Shown here piece after piece: positions 34,112 to 45,548 of a DNA stretch of 64,000 bases. A program made the position numbers and the translations under genes. Source of the stretch: Shigella phage ESh26. Where the stretch lies: the sequence record ON528736; one strand, 5' to 3'. Position 1 is the stretch's first letter, and each line of letters starts with the position of its first letter. The notes beneath the pieces are model-generated. The model searched no databases. It was given only the letters and a program-made list of their open reading frames with translations, and was not told where the DNA came from.

Positions 34112-34119
34112 TATAAATA
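34112..34119 (+). promoter_or_regulatory. Late promoter TATAAATA for gene 34
   Basis: Exact TATAAATA about 35 bp upstream of the gene 34 ATG. Confidence 0.6.
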
Positions 34120-34153: not shown

Positions 34154-37100
34154 ATGGCCGAGATTAAAAGAAAGTTCAGAGCAGAAGATGGTCTGGACGC
34201 AGGTGGCGATAAAATAATCAACGTAGCTTTAGCTGATCGTGCCGTAGGAACTGACGGTGTTAACGTTGATTACCTAATTCAAGAAAATACAGTTCAACAA
34301 TACGATCCAACTCGTGGATATTTAAAAGATTTTGTAATCATTTATGATAACCGCTTTTGGGCTGCTATAAATGATATTCCAAAACCGGCAGGAGCTTTTA
34401 ATAGCGGACGCTGGAGAGCATTACGTACCGATGCTAACTGGATTACAGTCTCATCTGGTTCATATCAATTAAAATCTGGTGAAGCTATTTCGGTTAACAC
34501 TGCAGCTGGTAATGATATTACATTTACTTTACCATCTACTCCAATTGATGGTGATACTATCGTTCTCCAAGATATTGGAGGAAAACCTGGAGTTAACCAA
34601 GTTTTAATTGTAGCTCCAGTGCAAAGTATTGTAAACTTCAGAGGCGAGCAAGTACGTTCAGTACTAATGACTCATCCAAAGTCACAGTTAGTTTTAATTT
34701 TTAGTAATCGTCTGTGGCAAATGTATGTAGCTGATTATAGTAGAGAAGCTGTAGTTGTAACACCAGCGAATACTTATCAAGCGCAATCTAATGATTTTAT
34801 CGTACGTAGATTTACTTCTGCTGCACCGATAAATATTAAACTTCCGAGATTTGCTAATCACGGCGATATTATTAATTTCGTCGATTTGGATAAATTAAAC
34901 CCTCTTTATCATACAATTGTTACGACATATGATGAAACGACATCAGTACAAGAAGATGGAACTCATTCCATTGAAGGCCGTACATCGATTGACGGTTTCT
35001 TGATGTTTGATGATAATGAGAAATTATGGAGATTGTTTGACGGGGACAGTAAAGCACGTTTACGTATCATAACGACTAATTCAAATATTCGTCCAAACGA
35101 AGAAGTTATGGTATTTGGTGCAAATAACGGAACAACTCAAACGATTGAGCTTCAGCTTCCAACTAATATTTCTGTTGGTGATACTGTTAAAATTTCCATG
35201 AATTACATGAGAAAAGGACAAACGGTTAAAATCAAAGCTGCCGGTGAAGATAAAATTGCTTCTTCAGTTCAATTGCTGCAATTCCCAAAACGTTCAGAAT
35301 ATCCACCTGAAGCTGAATGGGTGACTGTCCAAGAATTAGTTTTTAATGGCGAAACTAATTATGTTCCAGTTTTACAACTTGCTTATATAGAAGATTCTGA
35401 TGGAAAATACTGGGTTGTACAACAAAACGTTCCAACCGTAGAAAGAGTTGATTCTTTAAACGATTCTACTAGAGCAAGATTAGGCGTGATTGCTTTAGCT
35501 ACACAAGCGCAAGCTAATGTCGATTTAGAAAATTCTCCACAAAAAGAATTAGCAATTACTCCAGAAACATTAGCTAACCGTACTGCTACAGAAACTCGTA
35601 GAGGTATCGCGAGAATAGCAACTACTGCTCAAGTGAATCAGAACACCACATTCTCTTTTGCTGATGATATTATCATCACTCCTAAAAAGCTGAATGAAAG
35701 AACTGCTACAGAAACTCGTAGAGGTGTTGCTGAAATTGCTACGCAACAGGAAACTAATGCAGGTACTGATGATACTACAATCATCACTCCTAAAAAGCTT
35801 CAAGCTCGACAAGGTTCTGAATCATTATCTGGTATTGTAACCTTTGTATCTACCGCAGGAGCTACTCCAGCTTCTAGTCGTGAATTAAATGGTACAAACG
35901 TTTATAATAAAAACACTAATAATTTAGTTGTTTCGCCTAAAGCACTGGATCAGTATAAAGCTACTCCAACGCAACAAGGTGCAGTAATTTTAGCAGTTGA
36001 AAGTGAAGTAATTGCTGGACAGAGTCAAGAAGGATGGGCAAATGCGGTTGTAACGCCAGAAACGTTACATAAAAAGACATCAACTGATGGAAGAATTGGT
36101 TTAATTGAAATTGCTACGCAAAGTGAAGTTAATACAGGAACTGATTATACTCGTGCAGTCACTCCTAAAACTTTAAATGACCGTAAAGCAACTGAAAGTT
36201 TAAGTGGTATAGCTGAAATTGCTACACAAGTTGAATTCGACGCAGGCGTCGACGATACTCGTATCTCTACACCATTAAAAATTAAAACTAGATTTGATAG
36301 TACTGATCGTACTTCTGTTGTTGCTCTATCTGGATTAGTTGAATCAGGAACTCTCTGGGACCATTATACCCTTAATATTCTTGAAGCAAATGAGACACAG
36401 CGTGGTACACTTCGTGTAGCTACACAGGTTGAAGCTGCTGCAGGAACATTAGATAATGTTTTAATAACTCCTAAAAAGCTTTTAGGTACTAAATCTACCG
36501 AATCGCAGGAAGGTGTTATTAAAGTTGCAACTCAGTCTGAAACTGTAACTGGAGCGTCAGCAAATACTGCTGTATCTCCAAAAAATTTAAAATGGATTGT
36601 ACAGAGTGAACCTACTTGGGCAGCTACTACTGCGATAAGAGGCTTTGTTAAAACTTCATCTGGTTCAATTACATTCGTTGGTAATGATACAGCTGGTTCT
36701 ACGCAGGACTTAGAGCTATACGAGAAAAATAGCTATGCAGTATCACCATATGAATTAAACCGTGTATTAGCAAATTATTTGCCATTAAAAGCAAAAGCTG
36801 CTGATACAAATTTATTGGATGGTCTAGATTCATCTCAGTTCATTCGTAGGGATATTGCACAGACGGTTAATGGTTCACTAACCTTAACCCAACAAACGAA
36901 TCTGAGTGCCCCTCTTGTATCATCTAGTACTGCTACGTTTGGCGGATCAGTTTCGGCAAACAGCACATTAACTATTTCTAATACTGGAACGGCAACTCGT
37001 CTGATTTTTGAGAAAGGACCTCAAACTGGAACTAACCCAGTACAGACGATGACTATCAGAGTTTGGGGAAATCAGTTTGGTGGCGGTTCAGATACAACAC

Positions 37101-38023
37101 GTTCTACTGTATTTGAAGTTGGTGATGAAACGTCTAATCACTTTTATTCTCAACGTAATAAAGCTGGGAATATAACGTTTAGTATCAATGGTACTGTAAT
37201 GCCAATAAATGTTAATGCTTCGGGTTCTTTGAATGCGAACGGCGTTGCAACATTTGGTAGTTCAGTTACAGCCAATGGCGAATTCATCAGCAAGTCTGCA
37301 AATGCTTTCAGAGCAATAAATGGCGATTATGGATTCTTTATTCGCAATGATGCTGCTAACACCTATTTTATGCTTACTGCATCGGGTGATCAGACTGGTG
37401 GATTTAATGGATTACGTCCTTTAGCTATTAATAATGCATCTGGTCAAGTAACGATTGGTGAAAGCTTAATCATTGCCAAAGGTGCTACTATAAATTCAGG
37501 TGGTTTAACTGTTAACTCGAGAATTCGTTCTCAGGGCACTAAAACATCTGACTTATATACCCGTGCTCCAACGTCTGATACTGTAGGATTCTGGTCAATC
37601 GATATTAATGATTCAGCTACTTATAACCAGTTCCCAGGTTATTTTAAAATGGTTGAAAAAACTAATGAAGTGACTGGGCTTCCGTACTTAGAACGTGGCG
37701 AAGAAGTTAAATCTCCTGGTACATTGACTCAGTTTGGTAACACACTTGATTCGCTTTACCAAGATTGGATTACTTATCCAACGACTCCAGAAGCACGTAC
37801 CACTCGCTGGACACGTACATGGCAGAAAACCAAAAACTCTTGGTCGAGTTTTGTTCAGGTATTTGATGGAGGTAACCCTCCTCAGCCGTCTGATATCGGT
37901 GCTTTACCATCTGATAATGCTACAATGGGGAATCTTACTATTCGTGATTTCTTACGAATTGGTAATGTTCGCATTATTCCTGACCCAGTGAATAAAACGG
38001 TTAAATTTGAATGGGTTGAATAA
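34154..38023 (+). CDS. 34: Long tail fibre proximal subunit gp34
   Basis: 1289 aa as in T4 gp34; internal repeats ...TATETRRG.A.IAT... Confidence 0.95.
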   Translation: MAEIKRKFRAEDGLDAGGDKIINVALADRAVGTDGVNVDYLIQENTVQQYDPTRGYLKDFVIIYDNRFWAAINDIPKPAGAFNSGRWRALRTDANWITVSSGSYQLKSGEAISVNTAAGNDITFTLPSTPIDGDTIVLQDIGGKPGVNQVLIVAPVQSIVNFRGEQVRSVLMTHPKSQLVLIFSNRLWQMYVADYSREAVVVTPANTYQAQSNDFIVRRFTSAAPINIKLPRFANHGDIINFVDLDKLNPLYHTIVTTYDETTSVQEDGTHSIEGRTSIDGFLMFDDNEKLWRLFDGDSKARLRIITTNSNIRPNEEVMVFGANNGTTQTIELQLPTNISVGDTVKISMNYMRKGQTVKIKAAGEDKIASSVQLLQFPKRSEYPPEAEWVTVQELVFNGETNYVPVLQLAYIEDSDGKYWVVQQNVPTVERVDSLNDSTRARLGVIALATQAQANVDLENSPQKELAITPETLANRTATETRRGIARIATTAQVNQNTTFSFADDIIITPKKLNERTATETRRGVAEIATQQETNAGTDDTTIITPKKLQARQGSESLSGIVTFVSTAGATPASSRELNGTNVYNKNTNNLVVSPKALDQYKATPTQQGAVILAVESEVIAGQSQEGWANAVVTPETLHKKTSTDGRIGLIEIATQSEVNTGTDYTRAVTPKTLNDRKATESLSGIAEIATQVEFDAGVDDTRISTPLKIKTRFDSTDRTSVVALSGLVESGTLWDHYTLNILEANETQRGTLRVATQVEAAAGTLDNVLITPKKLLGTKSTESQEGVIKVATQSETVTGASANTAVSPKNLKWIVQSEPTWAATTAIRGFVKTSSGSITFVGNDTAGSTQDLELYEKNSYAVSPYELNRVLANYLPLKAKAADTNLLDGLDSSQFIRRDIAQTVNGSLTLTQQTNLSAPLVSSSTATFGGSVSANSTLTISNTGTATRLIFEKGPQTGTNPVQTMTIRVWGNQFGGGSDTTRSTVFEVGDETSNHFYSQRNKAGNITFSINGTVMPINVNASGSLNANGVATFGSSVTANGEFISKSANAFRAINGDYGFFIRNDAANTYFMLTASGDQTGGFNGLRPLAINNASGQVTIGESLIIAKGATINSGGLTVNSRIRSQGTKTSDLYTRAPTSDTVGFWSIDINDSATYNQFPGYFKMVEKTNEVTGLPYLERGEEVKSPGTLTQFGNTLDSLYQDWITYPTTPEARTTRWTRTWQKTKNSWSSFVQVFDGGNPPQPSDIGALPSDNATMGNLTIRDFLRIGNVRIIPDPVNKTVKFEWVE

Positions 38024-38031
38024 GAGGTATT

Positions 38032-39147
38032 ATGGAAAAATTTATGGCAGAGTTTGGACAAGGATATGTCCAAACGCCATTTTTATCGGAAAGTAATTCA
38101 GTAAGATATAAAATAAGTATAGCGGGTTCTTGCCCGCTTTCTACGGCAGGACCATACGTTAAATTTCAGGATAATCCTGTTGGAAGTCAAACATTTAGCG
38201 CAGGACTTCATCTAAGAGTTTTTGACCCTTCCACCGGAGCATTAGTTGATAGTAAGTCATATGCTTTTTCTACTTCAAATGATACTACATCGGCTGCTTT
38301 TGTTAGTTTCATGAATTCTTTGACGAATAACAGACTTGTTGCTATATTAACTAGCGGAAAGGTTAATTTTCCTCCTGAAGTAGTATCTTGGTTAAGAACC
38401 GCAGGAACGTCTGCTTTTCCATCTGATTCTTTGCTGTCAAGATTTGACGTATCATATGCTGCTTTTTACACTTCTTCTAAAAGAGCTATTGCATTAGAAC
38501 ACGTTAAACTAAGTAATAGAAAAAGCACAGATGATTATCAAACTATTTTAGATGTTGTATTTGACAGTTTAGAAGACGTTGGAGCTACCGGGTTTCCAAG
38601 AAGAACATATGAAAGCGTTGAGCAATTTATGTCGGCAGTTGGCGGAACTAATAACGAAATTGCACGTCTACCAACTTCAGCTGCGATAAGTAAATTATCT
38701 GACTATAATTTAATCCCTGGTGATGTTCTTTATCTTAAAGCACAGTTATATGCTGATGCCGATTTACTTGCGCTTGGAACTACAAATATATCTATCCGTT
38801 TTTATAATGCATCGAATGGATATATTTCCTCGACACAAGCTGAGTTTACCGGGCAAGCTGGGTCTTGGGAATTAAAGGAAGATTATGTGGTTGTTCCAGA
38901 AAACGCTGTCGGATTTACGATATATGCACAAAGAACAGCACAAGCTGGCCAAGGTGGCATGAGAAGTTTAAGCTTTTCTGAAGTGTCAAGAAATGGAGGT
39001 ATTTCGAAACCCGCTGAATTTGGCGTCAATGGCATTCGTGTTAATTATATCTGTGAATCTGCTTCACCTCCGGATATAATGGTACTTCCTACACAAGCAT
39101 CGTCTAAAACTGGTAAAGTGTTTGGGCAAGAATTTAGAGAAGTATAA
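38032..39147 (+). CDS. 35: Long tail fibre hinge protein gp35
   Basis: 371 aa (T4 gp35 about 372 aa); synteny. Confidence 0.9.
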   Translation: MEKFMAEFGQGYVQTPFLSESNSVRYKISIAGSCPLSTAGPYVKFQDNPVGSQTFSAGLHLRVFDPSTGALVDSKSYAFSTSNDTTSAAFVSFMNSLTNNRLVAILTSGKVNFPPEVVSWLRTAGTSAFPSDSLLSRFDVSYAAFYTSSKRAIALEHVKLSNRKSTDDYQTILDVVFDSLEDVGATGFPRRTYESVEQFMSAVGGTNNEIARLPTSAAISKLSDYNLIPGDVLYLKAQLYADADLLALGTTNISIRFYNASNGYISSTQAEFTGQAGSWELKEDYVVVPENAVGFTIYAQRTAQAGQGGMRSLSFSEVSRNGGISKPAEFGVNGIRVNYICESASPPDIMVLPTQASSKTGKVFGQEFREV

Positions 39148-39178: not shown

Positions 39179-39186
39179 TATAAATA
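39179..39186 (+). promoter_or_regulatory. Late promoter TATAAATA for gene 36
   Basis: Exact TATAAATA 24 bp upstream of the gene 36 ATG. Confidence 0.6.
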
Positions 39187-39209: not shown

Positions 39210-39875
39210 ATGGCTGATTTAAAAGTAGGTTCAACAACTGGAGGCTCTGTCATTTGGCATCAAGGAAATTTTCCATTGAATCCGGCCGGTGACGATGTAC
39301 TCTATAAATCATTTAAAATATATTCAGAATATAATAAACCACAAGCTGTTGATAACGATTTCGTTTCTAAAGCTAATGGTGGTACTTTTGCGTCAAAGGT
39401 AACATTTAATGCTGGTGTTCAAGTACCATATGCTGTAAACAATACAAACCCGTGCGGTATTTATCCAGGTAATGGCGATGCAGCTACTTTTGCTACAGCA
39501 AATATTGATATTGTTTCATGGTATGGTATTGGTTTTAAATCATCACAGGGTTCAGCAGCCCGAACTGTGGTAATTAACACACGTAATGGTGATATTAGTA
39601 CAAAAGGTGTTGTGTCGGCAGCTGGTCAAGTAAGAAGTGATGCTACTGCTCCTATAGCAGCAAATGACCTTACTAGAAAGGACTATGTTGATGGAGCAAT
39701 AAATACTGTTACGGCAAATGCAAACTCTAGAGTGTTACGATCTGGTGACACTATGACAGGAAACTTAACCGCACCAAACTTTTTCTCGCAGAATCCTGCG
39801 TCTCAACCTTCACACGTTCCGCGATTTGACCAAATCGTAATTAAGGATTCTGTTCAAGATTTCGGCTATTATTAA
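39210..39875 (+). CDS. 36: Long tail fibre distal-proximal connector gp36
   Basis: 221 aa as in T4 gp36. Confidence 0.9.
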   Translation: MADLKVGSTTGGSVIWHQGNFPLNPAGDDVLYKSFKIYSEYNKPQAVDNDFVSKANGGTFASKVTFNAGVQVPYAVNNTNPCGIYPGNGDAATFATANIDIVSWYGIGFKSSQGSAARTVVINTRNGDISTKGVVSAAGQVRSDATAPIAANDLTRKDYVDGAINTVTANANSRVLRSGDTMTGNLTAPNFFSQNPASQPSHVPRFDQIVIKDSVQDFGYY

Positions 39876-39883
39876 GAGGACTT

Positions 39884-42800
39884 ATGGCTACTTTAAAACA
39901 AATACAATTTAAAAGAAGCAAAATCGCAGGTGCACGTCCTGCTGCTTCAGTATTAGCCGAAGGTGAATTGGCTATAAACTTAAAAGATAGAACAATTTTT
40001 ACTAAAGATGATTCAGGAAATATCATTGATTTAAGCATTTCCGCTGGCGGTAATATCAGTGGAAATATCACTCAAACTGGAGATTATTTACAGAACGGTA
40101 CATATAATCTCAATGGAAATCAGTTTGTTTATGCAGGAAAATATATTGAATTTTTACCTAAAACAGCTGGTAATGGTGCATGGGCAAATCAACACCTAAA
40201 TAAAGCTCCTATCTTTACAGATTTGAGCTCAACTACTTCCGTTTCAGAATATCATCCGCTGATTAAACAACGCTATAAAGATGGAACTTTTTCTGTTGGT
40301 ACGTTAGTAAACGAAGGAAGTTTTAAAATTCATTATATCAACGAATCGGGAACTTCAAAATACTGGACATTTCGTAGAGATGGCGGATTTGTTGTTGATA
40401 CAGGAAGTTTGACAGTAACAGATGGAAATATTTCTGCTTCTGGTAATATTAATTCGGCTACTGGGGTAGTTTCTGCTCCGCAAATCAATACAAAGACTAT
40501 AGTATTTGACACAAAAGCATTTGGACAATACGATTCACAATCATTAGTTCAATATGTTTACCCTGGAACTGGTGAAACAAACGGAATCAATTACCTTCGC
40601 AAATTCCGTGCAAAATCTGGTGGTACAATTTATCATGAATTAGCTTCTGCACAAACCGGAAAAAGTGATGAACTTTCTTGGTGGACTGGTAATACAGCGG
40701 TTAATAAACAAATGGGCCTTCGCAATGATGGTTCTTTAGTATTACGACGTTCACTTGCAATTGGTACAATTACAACAGATGAAAACATCAATAACTACGG
40801 CTCCACTGGAGCAATGGGTGAATGCTATATAGTAATTGGAGACGCCGCAACAGGTGTATCATATAAAAGATCTGGTGTATACGATTTAGTTGCTAACGGT
40901 CTTTCTATAGCATCTATTACTCCTGACAGTTTCCGTAGTACTCGTAAAGCGTTATTTGGGCGTTCAGAAGACCAAGGCGGAACGTGGATTATGCCTGGAA
41001 CGAATGCTGCATTTTTATCAGTTCAAACACAGGCTGATGAAAACGCTGCTGGAGACGGCCAGACACATATTGGCTATAACTCAGGCGGAAAAATGAACCA
41101 CTATTTCCGTGGTAAAGGCAAAACTAATATTAATACTCAAGAAGGCATGGAAGTTAACCCGGGTATTCTTAAAATAGTAACCGGTGCAAATAATGTAATG
41201 TTTTATGCTGATGGCGGTATTACATCCACTAAGCAGCTTTCAATATATAATGGTGTATATTTAGCAGCTAATAATTCTACTGCTGGGCTAACATTCGCTC
41301 CAACTACTACAATTGATGGCACTAAGCAAATTTTGTGGGAAGGCGGTACTCGTGCTGGACAGAATAAAAGCTATGTAACTGTTAAAGCGTGGGGTAATTC
41401 ATTTAACGCATCTGGCGATCGTAATCGTGAAACGGTTTTTGAAGTAGCTGACGGACAAGGTTATTATTTTTATGCGCAGCGTGTAGCTCCTGCATCAGGT
41501 TCAACAACTGGAGTAATTCAATTTAGAATTGCTGGAGCATTATTAACCGGTGGGGGTATTACATCATCAGGTTCTATTGTTACTGAGTCAAGTTTAGTTG
41601 CAAATAATGGATTGTCTGTAAATGGACAAGCTAAATTTGGTGGAACAGCAGATGCATTAAGAATTTGGAATGCTGAATACGGTGCTATTTTCCGCCGTTC
41701 GGAAACTAACTTTTATATTATTCCAACTTTACAAAATGCCGGAGAATCGGGCGGTATAAGTAATTTACGCCCATTTACCATCAATCTCGCAAATGGTAGT
41801 GTTATGATGGGCAATCATACACAAGCCGGAAAAAATTTGCTTACTATTGATAACGTATCAAAATTCGTTCAAACCGATGTTAGACTTCGAGTTAATATGG
41901 ATTCTGACGCTATTGTGGTAAATGCTTCTTCTCAAGCAGCGTCTAACTTTATCCAAGGACGTAAGGCTGATGTTACAAAATGGTATTTAGGTATTGGCGA
42001 TGGCGGAAACGTCGTTCGTATGCATAATTACACCTACTCTCACGGTATTGCATTAAACTCTGATACTGTCGATATTACTAAACCTCTTAAAATTAATGAT
42101 ATTCGAATTGGTACAGATGGTAACATCACAGGTGGTACTGGTAATTTTGCCAACTTAAATACAACGTTAAATCGTAAAACCAGCGTGGGCGGTTGGGCTG
42201 GTAGTTCTGTTGACGGATGGTATAAATTTGCTACGGTAACAATTCCTCAGGGTACTGGTACAGTGACTTTTAAGATTTCCGGCGGCGCTGGTTTTAATTT
42301 TAAAAGCTATGGCCAAGCTTCTGTTGCAGAAATAGTTCTTCGCACAGGTAATAATAATCCTAAAGGCATAAACGCTGTACTGTGGAATAGGTCAGACCTG
42401 AGTTTTAATCAGATAGCTACTATGAATACATCTGGCGATACTTATGATGTATACGTGTTCTGTGCCGGTTATACAAATGCATTAGTGGTTGAATATTCCT
42501 GTAGTGAAAACTCTTCAGTAACCGTAGTCGGTCTTAACGGAGGCATTCAGCCAGTTGTTGATGCATTGCCTGAGGGACATGTTGTAGGTAAAACAGTTCG
42601 TCTGTTAAATAATATTGGCGGAACTTTCGCAGCTGGAGAATCTAACATTGTTACTCGCGGTGAATACGTTACTGATAATCAAAAAGGCATGCGTATTAAA
42701 TCTAACGGTAATAATATCGGTTCTAACGCAGCTTTAATTAGAAATGATGGCGGAAGTTTTTATATTTTAGCTACAGATAAAAATACGGAAGAAAAACCCG

Positions 42801-43762
42801 ATGCAGCTAATGGTGATTGGAATGGCTTAAGACCTTTCTCTATTAATATGACTGATGGCCGCGTTGGTATGAACCATGGGTTGAATATTACTGGTGGTGG
42901 ATTAAACGTTACTGGCGGTAATACTAACTTAGGTAATATTAGCTCAAGACTAGTTTCATACGCCCGCGCAGCATCTGGATGGGGAGATACCTCAGATGCC
43001 ATGAAATCTAAAATCACCTTTATGGCAGATCATGGTGATTTATCTAATTCAGGTAGTTATTATCCTATTGTCGGTGCATGGAGTAACTATGGTTCAGCGG
43101 GTTATCGTCAAACCTTTGAGTTCGGATGGGTCGGTTCCGGCACTACAGCGGGTTGGCGCGATGGTATTATTCGTATTCGCGGAGATAATGCTAATGGCCA
43201 GCAAGCAAGATGGCGCTTTACAATGGACGGTACTTTAGATTGCCCTGGTAAAGTACTGCTACCACAAACAGGTGCCTTTGGTGTCAATACATCAAATGGT
43301 CTAGGTGGAAATAGTATAACATTTGGTGATAGCGATACTGGTATTAAGCAAAATGGTGATGGATTATTAGACATATATGCGAACAGCGTACAAGTATTCC
43401 GTTTCCAAAACGGTGATTTGTACTCATACAAAAATATAAATGCTCCAAACGTTTATATTCGTTCTGATATTCGTTTAAAATCCAACTTCAAACCTATCGA
43501 AAATGCGCTTGATAAAGTTGAAAAACTTAACGGTGTCATTTACGATAAAGCTGAATACATCGGTGGAGAGGCAATTGAAACTGAAGCGGGTATTGTGGCT
43601 CAAACGTTGCAAGACGTTTTACCAGAAGCTGTCCGTGAAACAGAAGACAGCAAGGGTAATAAAATACTCACTGTTTCTTCTCAAGCCCAGATTGCTCTTC
43701 TAGTTGAAGCTGTGAAAACACTTTCTTCTCGTGTAAAAGAACTTGAATCTAAACTTATGTAA
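39884..43762 (+). CDS. 37: Long tail fibre distal subunit gp37 (T2-type) with C-terminal intramolecular-chaperone-like domain
   Basis: 1292 aa; C-terminal about 100 aa begins with SDIRLKSN (S74-like motif) and ends in a coiled-coil-like segment. Confidence 0.9.
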   Translation: MATLKQIQFKRSKIAGARPAASVLAEGELAINLKDRTIFTKDDSGNIIDLSISAGGNISGNITQTGDYLQNGTYNLNGNQFVYAGKYIEFLPKTAGNGAWANQHLNKAPIFTDLSSTTSVSEYHPLIKQRYKDGTFSVGTLVNEGSFKIHYINESGTSKYWTFRRDGGFVVDTGSLTVTDGNISASGNINSATGVVSAPQINTKTIVFDTKAFGQYDSQSLVQYVYPGTGETNGINYLRKFRAKSGGTIYHELASAQTGKSDELSWWTGNTAVNKQMGLRNDGSLVLRRSLAIGTITTDENINNYGSTGAMGECYIVIGDAATGVSYKRSGVYDLVANGLSIASITPDSFRSTRKALFGRSEDQGGTWIMPGTNAAFLSVQTQADENAAGDGQTHIGYNSGGKMNHYFRGKGKTNINTQEGMEVNPGILKIVTGANNVMFYADGGITSTKQLSIYNGVYLAANNSTAGLTFAPTTTIDGTKQILWEGGTRAGQNKSYVTVKAWGNSFNASGDRNRETVFEVADGQGYYFYAQRVAPASGSTTGVIQFRIAGALLTGGGITSSGSIVTESSLVANNGLSVNGQAKFGGTADALRIWNAEYGAIFRRSETNFYIIPTLQNAGESGGISNLRPFTINLANGSVMMGNHTQAGKNLLTIDNVSKFVQTDVRLRVNMDSDAIVVNASSQAASNFIQGRKADVTKWYLGIGDGGNVVRMHNYTYSHGIALNSDTVDITKPLKINDIRIGTDGNITGGTGNFANLNTTLNRKTSVGGWAGSSVDGWYKFATVTIPQGTGTVTFKISGGAGFNFKSYGQASVAEIVLRTGNNNPKGINAVLWNRSDLSFNQIATMNTSGDTYDVYVFCAGYTNALVVEYSCSENSSVTVVGLNGGIQPVVDALPEGHVVGKTVRLLNNIGGTFAAGESNIVTRGEYVTDNQKGMRIKSNGNNIGSNAALIRNDGGSFYILATDKNTEEKPDAANGDWNGLRPFSINMTDGRVGMNHGLNITGGGLNVTGGNTNLGNISSRLVSYARAASGWGDTSDAMKSKITFMADHGDLSNSGSYYPIVGAWSNYGSAGYRQTFEFGWVGSGTTAGWRDGIIRIRGDNANGQQARWRFTMDGTLDCPGKVLLPQTGAFGVNTSNGLGGNSITFGDSDTGIKQNGDGLLDIYANSVQVFRFQNGDLYSYKNINAPNVYIRSDIRLKSNFKPIENALDKVEKLNGVIYDKAEYIGGEAIETEAGIVAQTLQDVLPEAVRETEDSKGNKILTVSSQAQIALLVEAVKTLSSRVKELESKLM

Positions 43763-43792
43763 AAGAGGGCTTCGGCCCTCTAAGGATTTTTA

Positions 43793-44587
43793 ATGGCAAT
43801 TGTAGGTGTTCCTGGCTGGATTGGTGAATCTGCCGTGAATGAAACTGGACAACGTTGGATGGATGCTGCGATGAGAGCAGTTCGTGTTTCAGTTCCTGGT
43901 TGGATGAGCTCAATGGCCGGACAATCTAAAGAAGTATATTACAGCATTGGTGCTAGCAATTCTTATAATAAAGACACACTAATAAATTATCTCAAATCTC
44001 AAGGTAGTACTCCTGTTGTTGTTACTATTACTGGTAACTTAGTTTCTTCATCTGCCGGGCAACCTTGCTTAGATTTTCCTAGTTCATTAACTAATGCTTA
44101 TGTAACGCTTATTATAAATGGCGGTGTAACAGTATATGGTCGCGGAGGACGCGGCGCGCAAGCGGGAAACCAGGCGGGTGAAGCTGGTGGTACTGCAATT
44201 AACAATGGTATAGGTACTCGTCTACGAATCACTAACAATGGAGCGATTGCTGGCGGCGGTGGCGGCGGTGGCGCCCAATCAACTGATAATGGATGGGGAG
44301 GTAAATATGTTTCTGGCGGCGGCGGCGGACGTCCTTTCGGAGCTGGTGGTAATAATGGAGCAAAAGCTCCGGGTGCATCAGCATCTTTAACATCTCCAGG
44401 CGCAGGCGGAAAAATGTATTCCGGCGTTGGATACTACGGTGGTGACGGTGGTAATGTTGGTGAACGAGGTAAGGATGCGGTTAGATTGAACGGCTATTCG
44501 AACTCACCTGGCGCAGCAGGTAAAGCTGTTACTGGTAATGCTCCAACTTGGACTAAAGTTGGTACAATATATGGTGCAAGAGTATAA
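43793..44587 (+). CDS. 38: Tail fibre tip adhesin gp38 (T2-type, glycine-rich motifs)
   Basis: 264 aa; N-terminus MAIVGVPGWIGESAVNETGQRWM; poly-Gly runs separated by variable segments. Confidence 0.85.
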   Translation: MAIVGVPGWIGESAVNETGQRWMDAAMRAVRVSVPGWMSSMAGQSKEVYYSIGASNSYNKDTLINYLKSQGSTPVVVTITGNLVSSSAGQPCLDFPSSLTNAYVTLIINGGVTVYGRGGRGAQAGNQAGEAGGTAINNGIGTRLRITNNGAIAGGGGGGGAQSTDNGWGGKYVSGGGGGRPFGAGGNNGAKAPGASASLTSPGAGGKMYSGVGYYGGDGGNVGERGKDAVRLNGYSNSPGAAGKAVTGNAPTWTKVGTIYGARV

Positions 44588-44618: not shown

Positions 44619-45275
44619 ATGGCAGCACCTAGAATATCATTTTCGCCCTCTGATATTCTGTTTGGTGTTCTAGATCGCTTGTTCAAAGATAACGCTACCG
44701 GGAAAGTTCTTGCTTCCCGGGTAGCTGTCGTAATTCTTTTGTTTATAATGGCGATTGTTTGGTATAGGGGAGATAGTTTCTTTGAGTACTATAAGCAATC
44801 AAAGTATGAAACATACAGTGAAATTATTGAAAAGGAAAGAAATGCACGCTTTGAATCTGTCGCCCTGGAACAACTCCAGATAGTTCATATATCATCTGAG
44901 GCAGACTTTAGTGCGGTGTATTCTTTCCGCCCTAAAAACTTAAACTATTTTGTTGATATTATAGCATATGAAGGAAAATTACCTTCAACAATAAGTGAAA
45001 AATCACTTGGAGGATATCCTGTTGATAAAACTATGGATGAATATGCAGTTCATTTAAATGGACGTCATTATTATTCCGACTCAAAATTTGCTTTTTTACC
45101 AACCAAAAAGCCTACTCCCGAAATAAATTACATGTACAGTTGTCCATATTTCAATTTGGATAATATCTATGCTGGAACAATAACCATGTACTGGTATAGA
45201 AATGATCATATAAGTAATGACCGCCTTGAATCAATATGTGCTCAGGCGGCCAGAATATTAGGAAGGGCTAAATAA
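44619..45275 (+). CDS. t: Holin T
   Basis: 218 aa; single N-terminal TM segment with large periplasmic domain; matches T4 holin as recalled. Confidence 0.9.
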   Translation: MAAPRISFSPSDILFGVLDRLFKDNATGKVLASRVAVVILLFIMAIVWYRGDSFFEYYKQSKYETYSEIIEKERNARFESVALEQLQIVHISSEADFSAVYSFRPKNLNYFVDIIAYEGKLPSTISEKSLGGYPVDKTMDEYAVHLNGRHYYSDSKFAFLPTKKPTPEINYMYSCPYFNLDNIYAGTITMYWYRNDHISNDRLESICAQAARILGRAK

Positions 45276-45548
45276 TTATTTGTTCGTATACATCTCTAGA
45301 TATCGATATACACCCTCAAAACCCTCGTTGAATTCGTCGATGAGGGTTTTCTTATCTTCTTGAGTTAATTCAGAAACAATTTTACGGAATGAATTCTGAT
45401 TCAACTTTCTACCTTCATGCGTTACTCCAATCTCATTCAGAAATGCAATAAAATTAGCACGATTCTCAACAATATCTTCTCGGGAAAATTTAATCAAAAT
45501 AGACGCAACAGTAATAATTTCACGAACTGTATCAATATTTTTATTCAT
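45276..45548 (-). CDS. asiA: Anti-sigma-70 factor AsiA
   Basis: 90 aa; MNKNIDTVREIITVASILIKFSRED... matches T4 AsiA as recalled. Confidence 0.9.
   Translation of the reverse strand: MNKNIDTVREIITVASILIKFSREDIVENRANFIAFLNEIGVTHEGRKLNQNSFRKIVSELTQEDKKTLIDEFNEGFEGVYRYLEMYTNK

Follow-up and report, generated by a model that had tools for sequence, protein, structure and literature searches.

A C-terminal Peptidase_S74-type intramolecular chaperone domain with a predicted self-cleavage site in the distal tail fibre protein gp37 of Shigella phage ESh26

The stretch of DNA analysed here (the window) comprises 64,000 nucleotides of Shigella phage ESh26 (sequence record ON528736). It contains the long-tail-fibre cluster of a T-even phage, with the gene order g34-g35-g36-g37-g38-t in the list of open reading frames (Table 1). 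The backbone is ~98% identical to several Tequatroviruses (best match in the collection, ~98%), and g37 is 98.5% identical to that of Shigella phage SH-2, 98.3% identical to that of CrRp10, and 84.9% identical to that of T2 over 91% of its length. Thus, the sequence-only reading, which drew on T2, needs a correction: judged by these sequence comparisons, the window is that of a mosaic T2-like Tequatrovirus and not of T2 itself.

The product of g37 matches PHROG 1699 ("long tail fiber protein distal subunit") with 1088 bits and contains three Pfam domains, Gp34_trimer, gp37_trimer, and Peptidase_S74. The Gp34_trimer and gp37_trimer matches lie at aa 508-633 and 677-750 (about 41405-42133). Gp34_trimer is the Pfam family for the domain through which gp34, the proximal fibre protein, trimerises at its C-terminus; its match in gp37 indicates modules that are common to the proximal and distal half-fibres. 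A plus-strand ORF in another frame (43503-43703, 66 aa) and the antisense ORFs within g37 were discarded as spurious, since they overlap this strongly supported gene.

Table 1. Positions of the tail-fibre genes, the predicted parts of gp37, and nearby hairpins in the window
Feature	Position	Strand	Description
g34	34154-38023	+	1289 aa; long-tail-fibre cluster of T-even phage (ORF list)
g35	38032-39147	+	ORF list, synteny
g36	39210-39875	+	ORF list, synteny
g37, long tail fibre distal subunit precursor	39884-43762	+	1292 aa, 137.7 kDa; ORF list, synteny
Predicted mature gp37	39884-43462	+	aa 1-1193, 126.9 kDa, ending ...NAPNVYIR; inferred from the cleavage sites of homologues
Last five residues of predicted mature gp37, N-V-Y-I-R	43448-43462	+	aa 1189-1193
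Whole intramolecular chaperone domain (predicted)	43463-43759	+	99 aa, S1194-M1292, 10.8 kDa; release predicted after trimerisation
Catalytic motif S1194-D1195-I1196-R1197-L1198-K1199	43463-43480	+	DNA read directly: tct gat att cgt tta aaa
Pfam Peptidase_S74 core	43463-43636	+	aa 1194-1251, PF13884
C-terminal amphipathic helix	43679-43756	+	aa 1266-1291, four heptads, predicted trimeric coiled coil
CUUCGG-loop hairpin AGAGGGCTTCGGCCCTCT	43764-43781	+	Between the g37 stop and the g38 AAGGA ribosome-binding site; outside the S74 domain
g38, T2-type adhesin	43793-44587	+	264 aa; N-terminal attachment domain; Pfam
t (holin)	44619-45275	+	ORF list, synteny
Hairpin, 14-pair stem followed by a T-rich run	45318-45350	+	Just past gene t, whose stop is at 45275

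The T4 late-promoter motif TATAAATA is present on the plus strand at 34112-34119, ~35 nt upstream of the g34 start, and at 39179-39186, ~24 nt upstream of the g36 start, but was not found upstream of g37 or g38. Because it precedes g36 and neither of the two genes that follow, g36, g37, and g38 probably share one late transcript. A candidate internal late promoter for g38 (TATAAAT-G, 43435-43442) was dropped, since the canonical motif occurs here only before g34 and g36 and is no more frequent in the window as a whole than expected by chance. The hairpin that follows g37 has a seven-pair stem with five G-C pairs (-13.4 kcal/mol) and a terminator-like score; very stable UUCG hairpins of a similar kind occur in T4 intercistronic regions. 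The hairpin beyond gene t lies inside a convergent 90-aa ORF (45276-45548, minus strand), which occupies the position that asiA has in T4. This hairpin may terminate the late tail-fibre/holin transcript from within the 3' end of the gene that runs the other way.

Immediately downstream of g37 lies an adhesin gene, g38, whose product matches PF21721 (Gp38_N) at aa 1-42 with E 8e-18 and PF05268 (GP38) at aa 47-264 with E 8e-73. An adhesin with an N-terminal attachment domain and a glycine-rich specificity domain, encoded directly after g37, is the arrangement of the T2-type (adhesin-capped) fibre, and the window has it. The fibre is not of the T4 type: gp37 contains PF13884 and gp38 is an adhesin.

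The C-terminus of gp37 contains the S74-type domain that the sequence-only reading proposed, and Pfam, catalytic residues, C-terminal position, and predicted fold agree on this point. In the Pfam search suggested by that reading, PF13884 (Peptidase_S74, "chaperone of endosialidase") matches gp37 along the full length of the profile (all of its positions, 1-58) at E 3.5e-15; the score is 56.5 bits versus a gathering score of 22. The controls are as follows: T2 gp37 gives the same match with the same score, while PF13884 was not found in T4 gp37 or in gp34 and gp36 of the window. In NCBIfam, no model was found that matches gp37 or its C-terminus. When a profile of the S74 domain is searched against the ORFs of the window, gp37 is the sole match. 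From these comparisons of sequence, the C-terminal 99 aa of gp37 are a Peptidase_S74 match beyond chance.

The catalytic Ser and the Lys five residues downstream are both present at the start of the domain, as S1194 and K1199. When the ORFs of 40 aa or more in all six frames of the window are taken together (46,048 residues), the pattern SD.R.K occurs a single time. This motif does begin the last 99 aa, as had been claimed, although the Y-I-R quoted with it lies just upstream, at 43454-43462. The 99 codons of the domain are followed directly by the g37 stop codon (43760-43762), and the domain thus occupies the extreme C-terminus of a trimeric fibre protein.

An AlphaFold2 model of the last 120 aa as a monomer, that is, as a single chain of an obligate trimer, has a mean pLDDT of 89.5 and a pTM of 0.76. 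The model consists of a small mixed alpha/beta part and then a long C-terminal helix, the characteristic S74 fold. The helix spans query residues 94-119 of 120 with a pLDDT of 95-98, and its a/d positions (I1270, L1273, V1277, L1280, V1284, L1287, and L1291) are spaced 3-4-3-4-3-4, a regular heptad pattern that agrees with the coiled-coil-like ending noticed earlier from the letters. Such a pattern matches the trimeric coiled coil at the centre of the T5 chaperone. In a Foldseek search, an S74-like fold was indeed found: the top 11 PDB matches are all S74-type chaperones (7DC3, 3GW6, or 3GUD), with probabilities of 0.99-1.00. Structure comparison gives values of 10.0 for 7DC3, 7.6 for 4UW8, 7.2 for 3GW6, and 6.7 for 3GUD; the next, unrelated structure has 3.3, so that the fold matches of the model show a clean gap to background. 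At the level of sequence, the best PDB match is S16 gp37 (6F45), with E 7e-12 for the single sequence and 1.4e-20 for the profile. Other PDB sequence matches are 8JOV (a phage tail fibre), 7DC3 (the MyRF ICA domain), and 3GUD (the GA-1 appendage chaperone).

A word-indexed protein search with the 120-aa C-terminus returned 9 matches, too few for conservation statistics. An exhaustive HMMER search over cluster representatives with the same query yielded 28,468 representatives at E<=1e-3. Among the best 150-odd of these 28,468 relatives, 152 of 171 matched stretches reach to 15 residues or fewer from the C-terminus, and the median distance from Ser to the C-terminus is 97 aa, versus 99 aa here. 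The motif is strongly conserved in these best relatives (Ser in 162 of 164, Asp in 164 of 164, and Lys in 164 of 165). In a curated alignment of 28 sequences, S1194, D1195, K1199, G1236, A1239, and P1247 are invariant, and R1197 is conserved in at least 90%. Residues preceding the Ser are also shared: the counts in the 160-odd best relatives are 103 for V, 90 for Y, 99 for I, and 89 for R, and the family consensus just upstream of Ser, read from the alignment, is [D/N]-V-Y-I-R. Arg is the commonest residue directly before Ser (89 of 161). The S74 module is present in 1714 phage records and forms the end of the proteins in 34 PHROG families; of the 25 families listed, 22 are tail-fibre or baseplate proteins and 3 have unknown function.

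Three of the relatives found by HMMER contain two S74-type domains in one polypeptide, and three others have an internal copy, far from the C-terminus. If the copies are active, such proteins would give several cleavage products, as with the internal MyRF ICA domain.

The closest well-described counterpart is T2 gp37, which has the same 99-aa domain and an identical NVYIR^SDIRLK site; over their last 200 aa, the two proteins differ only at S1282, which is A in T2. T2 gp37 differs in being longer (1341 versus 1292 aa), in an N-terminal half with 78% nucleotide identity, and in a central stretch where the window has no T2 match. Trojet et al. 2011 (PMC3157838) describe gp37 of T2 and T6 as undergoing proteolytic cleavage at the C-terminus, after which gp38 caps it, a statement repeated in PMC13030884, and cite Drexler, Riede and Henning 1986 (J Mol Biol) on the processing of T2 gp37. 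The connection with T2 processing, which the sequence-only reading had drawn from older literature, is a direct one. A T6 g37 entry from 1998 (AF052605, 1480-1899) reads SDSRLN, with Asn at the position of the catalytic Lys. It was rejected as a natural inactive variant: the complete T6 genome (AP018814) reads SDSRLK, with Lys at this position, while the old entry further contains an ambiguous base and differs at neighbouring positions, and the Asn is therefore most likely a sequencing error.

S16 gp37 (PDB 6F45; Dunne et al. 2018) shares with the ESh26 protein a trimeric tip, the S-D-x-R-x-K motif, a chaperone, and a gp38 adhesin gene. However, its chaperone has 113 aa rather than 99, Ser rather than Arg precedes the cut, and beyond the five residues next to the cut the upstream sequence is unrelated to that found here. 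For S16 and the fPS phages, Salem 2021 (PMC7917993) notes a resemblance that is confined to the five residues preceding the cut.

Other S74-type chaperones are more distant. The chaperone of the K1F endosialidase (PDB 3GW6), the founding member of Peptidase_S74, serves a tailspike enzyme instead of a fibre; it is longer, has long "tentacle" hairpins, and is ~13-17% identical. In the L-shaped tail fibre pb1 of T5 (PDB 4UW8), the chaperone has 133 aa with hairpin tentacles of 50 angstroms and 11% identity, and there is no separate capping adhesin. The MyRF ICA domain (PDB 7DC3) is eukaryotic, and the crystallised chain extends on both sides of the matched stretch. In MyRF, the ICA lies inside a membrane-bound transcription factor, whose N-terminal part is set free by the cleavage.

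T4 gp37 (1026 aa) is encoded at the equivalent place in the gene order, and its fibre shaft is homologous in the N-terminal and central parts. However, it contains Collar and Phage_fiber domains and no S74 domain, and its own C-terminus is the receptor-binding tip. T4 gp38 is an assembly chaperone unrelated to the T2-type gp38, and in T4 the chaperones are gp38 and gp57 (Trojet et al. 2011, PMC3157838). The contrast with T4 gp37 drawn by the sequence-only reading therefore stands, since the T4 protein is without PF13884. The presence of an S74 domain does not by itself imply independence of gp57A, whose gene lies outside the stretch examined.

Taken with the cleavage sites of its homologues, residues S1194-M1292 of gp37 are very likely (with a probability of roughly 0.9) an intramolecular chaperone domain of the kind found at the C-terminus of endosialidases and tail fibres (MEROPS/Pfam S74), which cleaves itself at Arg1193|Ser1194. 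What we infer by analogy is that the domain acts as a chaperone, that it cuts itself, exactly which bond is cut, and in what order the steps take place. The predicted bond lies between nucleotides 43462 and 43463, that is, before the Ser and not, as originally suggested, at Ser-Asp, because the cut is DLNVS^SDRRIKK in S16 and Thr1263-Ser1264 in T5. A cut at this point means that the Ser leaves with the chaperone. The residue preceding the Ser varies, being Arg in gp37, Thr in T5, and Ser in S16. In T5 pb1, a Ser1264Ala substitution blocks the cleavage at Thr1263-Ser1264, Lys1269 activates the Ser, and an Arg from the neighbouring chain of the folded triple beta-helix completes the active site, so that cleavage reports correct folding (PMC4690869). 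Such a "sensor" arginine from a neighbouring subunit has been described for both T5 and K1F. When the Ser1264/Lys1269 mechanism is transposed to gp37, S1194 is the predicted nucleophile and K1199, at +5, the predicted general base. For S16, Salem et al. 2021 (PMC7917993) state that the last 113 residues autocleave after trimerisation, between the two Ser of DLNVS^SDRRIKK, and that this exposes the docking surface for gp38; the S16 site is there aligned to DVYIR^SDGRLKI in Tequatroviruses. Models of S16 gp38 docking are given in PMC7917993 and PMC6851490.

By analogy with these systems, assembly of the ESh26 fibre would proceed as follows. Three gp37 chains would associate through the S74 domain, the C-terminal helices forming a trimeric coiled coil. 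The chaperone trimer would then nucleate and register the folding of the trimeric beta-helical fibre tip, starting from the C-terminus. Once the tip is folded, Ser1194, activated by Lys1199, would attack the peptide bond to Arg1193. The release of a 10.8-kDa fragment per chain would leave mature gp37 of 1193 aa and 126.9 kDa, and gp38 would dock on the newly exposed end of gp37, where its N-terminal attachment domain is expected to bind.

Nothing in the sequence argues against reading the gp37 C-terminus as an S74 chaperone, and the alternatives differ mainly in what happens to it. A genuine chaperone homologue might be removed by a host protease or another phage protease, or might need gp38 for its removal, rather than rely on autocatalysis by Ser1194/Lys1199. 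This would accord with secondary sources on T2, which say only that gp37 is "proteolytically cleaved" and leave the protease unnamed (PMC3157838, PMC13030884). However, hundreds of relatives share the invariant Ser, Asp, and Lys, both T5 pb1 and a similar chaperone domain are no longer cleaved after a Ser-to-Ala change (PMC4690869), and S16 gp37 is described as autocleaving (PMC7917993); removal by such a route is consequently very improbable. It is extremely improbable that the domain is an inactive homologue retained in ESh26 gp37 as the permanent end of the fibre. The internal or duplicated S74 copies of some relatives mean that not every copy need be a removable terminus, and nothing more specific points this way; against it are the intact catalytic motif and a domain 99% identical to that of T2, whose gp37 is reported to be processed (PMC3157838). 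A six-residue pattern with four fixed positions could also arise randomly in a 64-kb window. A mere chance resemblance, with no homology to S74, nevertheless has almost no probability, and was set aside as already refuted by the full-length Pfam match, the profile match to solved chaperones in the PDB, and the fold matches.

If gp37 does mature by self-cleavage, its new end would be where the host-range adhesin docks. Across 39884-44587, nucleotide identity to T2 is 78% at 39884-41727, 90% at 42087-44148, and 95% after 44508; no T2 match was found at 41728-42086 or at 44149-44508, the gp38 specificity region. Thus, the T2-like block 42087-44148 stops where the gp38 specificity region begins. 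Protein identities to the window were compared for four phages, taking in order the last 60 aa of the mature tip, the chaperone, the first 45 aa of gp38, and the rest of gp38. They are 100, 99, 97.8, and 58% for T2, whose attachment domain is hence nearly the same while its specificity region is not; 68, 88, 100, and 69% for ADUt; 27, 39, 67, and 42% for fPS-90; and 12, 30, 44, and 45% for wV7. The identities among these five phages are compatible with co-inheritance of the tip, the chaperone, and the gp38 attachment domain, in a sample that is far too small to demonstrate it. The T2-like block and the identities also fit a "lock-and-key" pairing of the tip with the gp38 N-terminus, again for a small sample; this pairing is not new, having been discussed by Trojet 2011 (PMC3157838). 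A bolder proposal is that the released 10.8-kDa chaperone trimer gates or assists the loading of the single gp38 adhesin at the trimeric end of gp37, and that tip, chaperone, and gp38 attachment domain form one co-adapted recombining cassette. We regard this as distinctly unlikely; if true, the cassette would set rules for host-range swapping between T-even phages.

The closest relatives of g38 are those of ime09, ECP2301, KRT47, and Sf22, which are 97-99% identical. For KRT47 and Sf22, a link to OmpC comes from Shigella ompC mutants that are resistant (PMC12892980), and because of the similarity in g38, ESh26 probably targets OmpC as well. In the records of ime09 (JN202312) and SA21RB (OL960580), the T2-type gp38 is annotated as "distal long tail fiber assembly catalyst". 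This label has been carried over from T4, since the catalyst function belongs to the unrelated T4 gp38.

The feature itself is already known. It has been described for the gp37 proteins of T2, T6, S16, and related Tequatroviruses, and the ESh26 domain is a textbook member of a curated family. The result is thus a correct annotation for ESh26 and not new knowledge, since the biology is established and Pfam detects the domain automatically. For the phage, the S74 domain would explain how the distal half-fibre of the T2 type can trimerise without a gp38 chaperone of the T4 kind, and what creates the surface on which the host-range adhesin gp38 docks. It is also useful for the expression of recombinant fibres and the engineering of host range: constructs would have to keep aa 1194-1292 for folding, and the predicted mature end is Arg1193.
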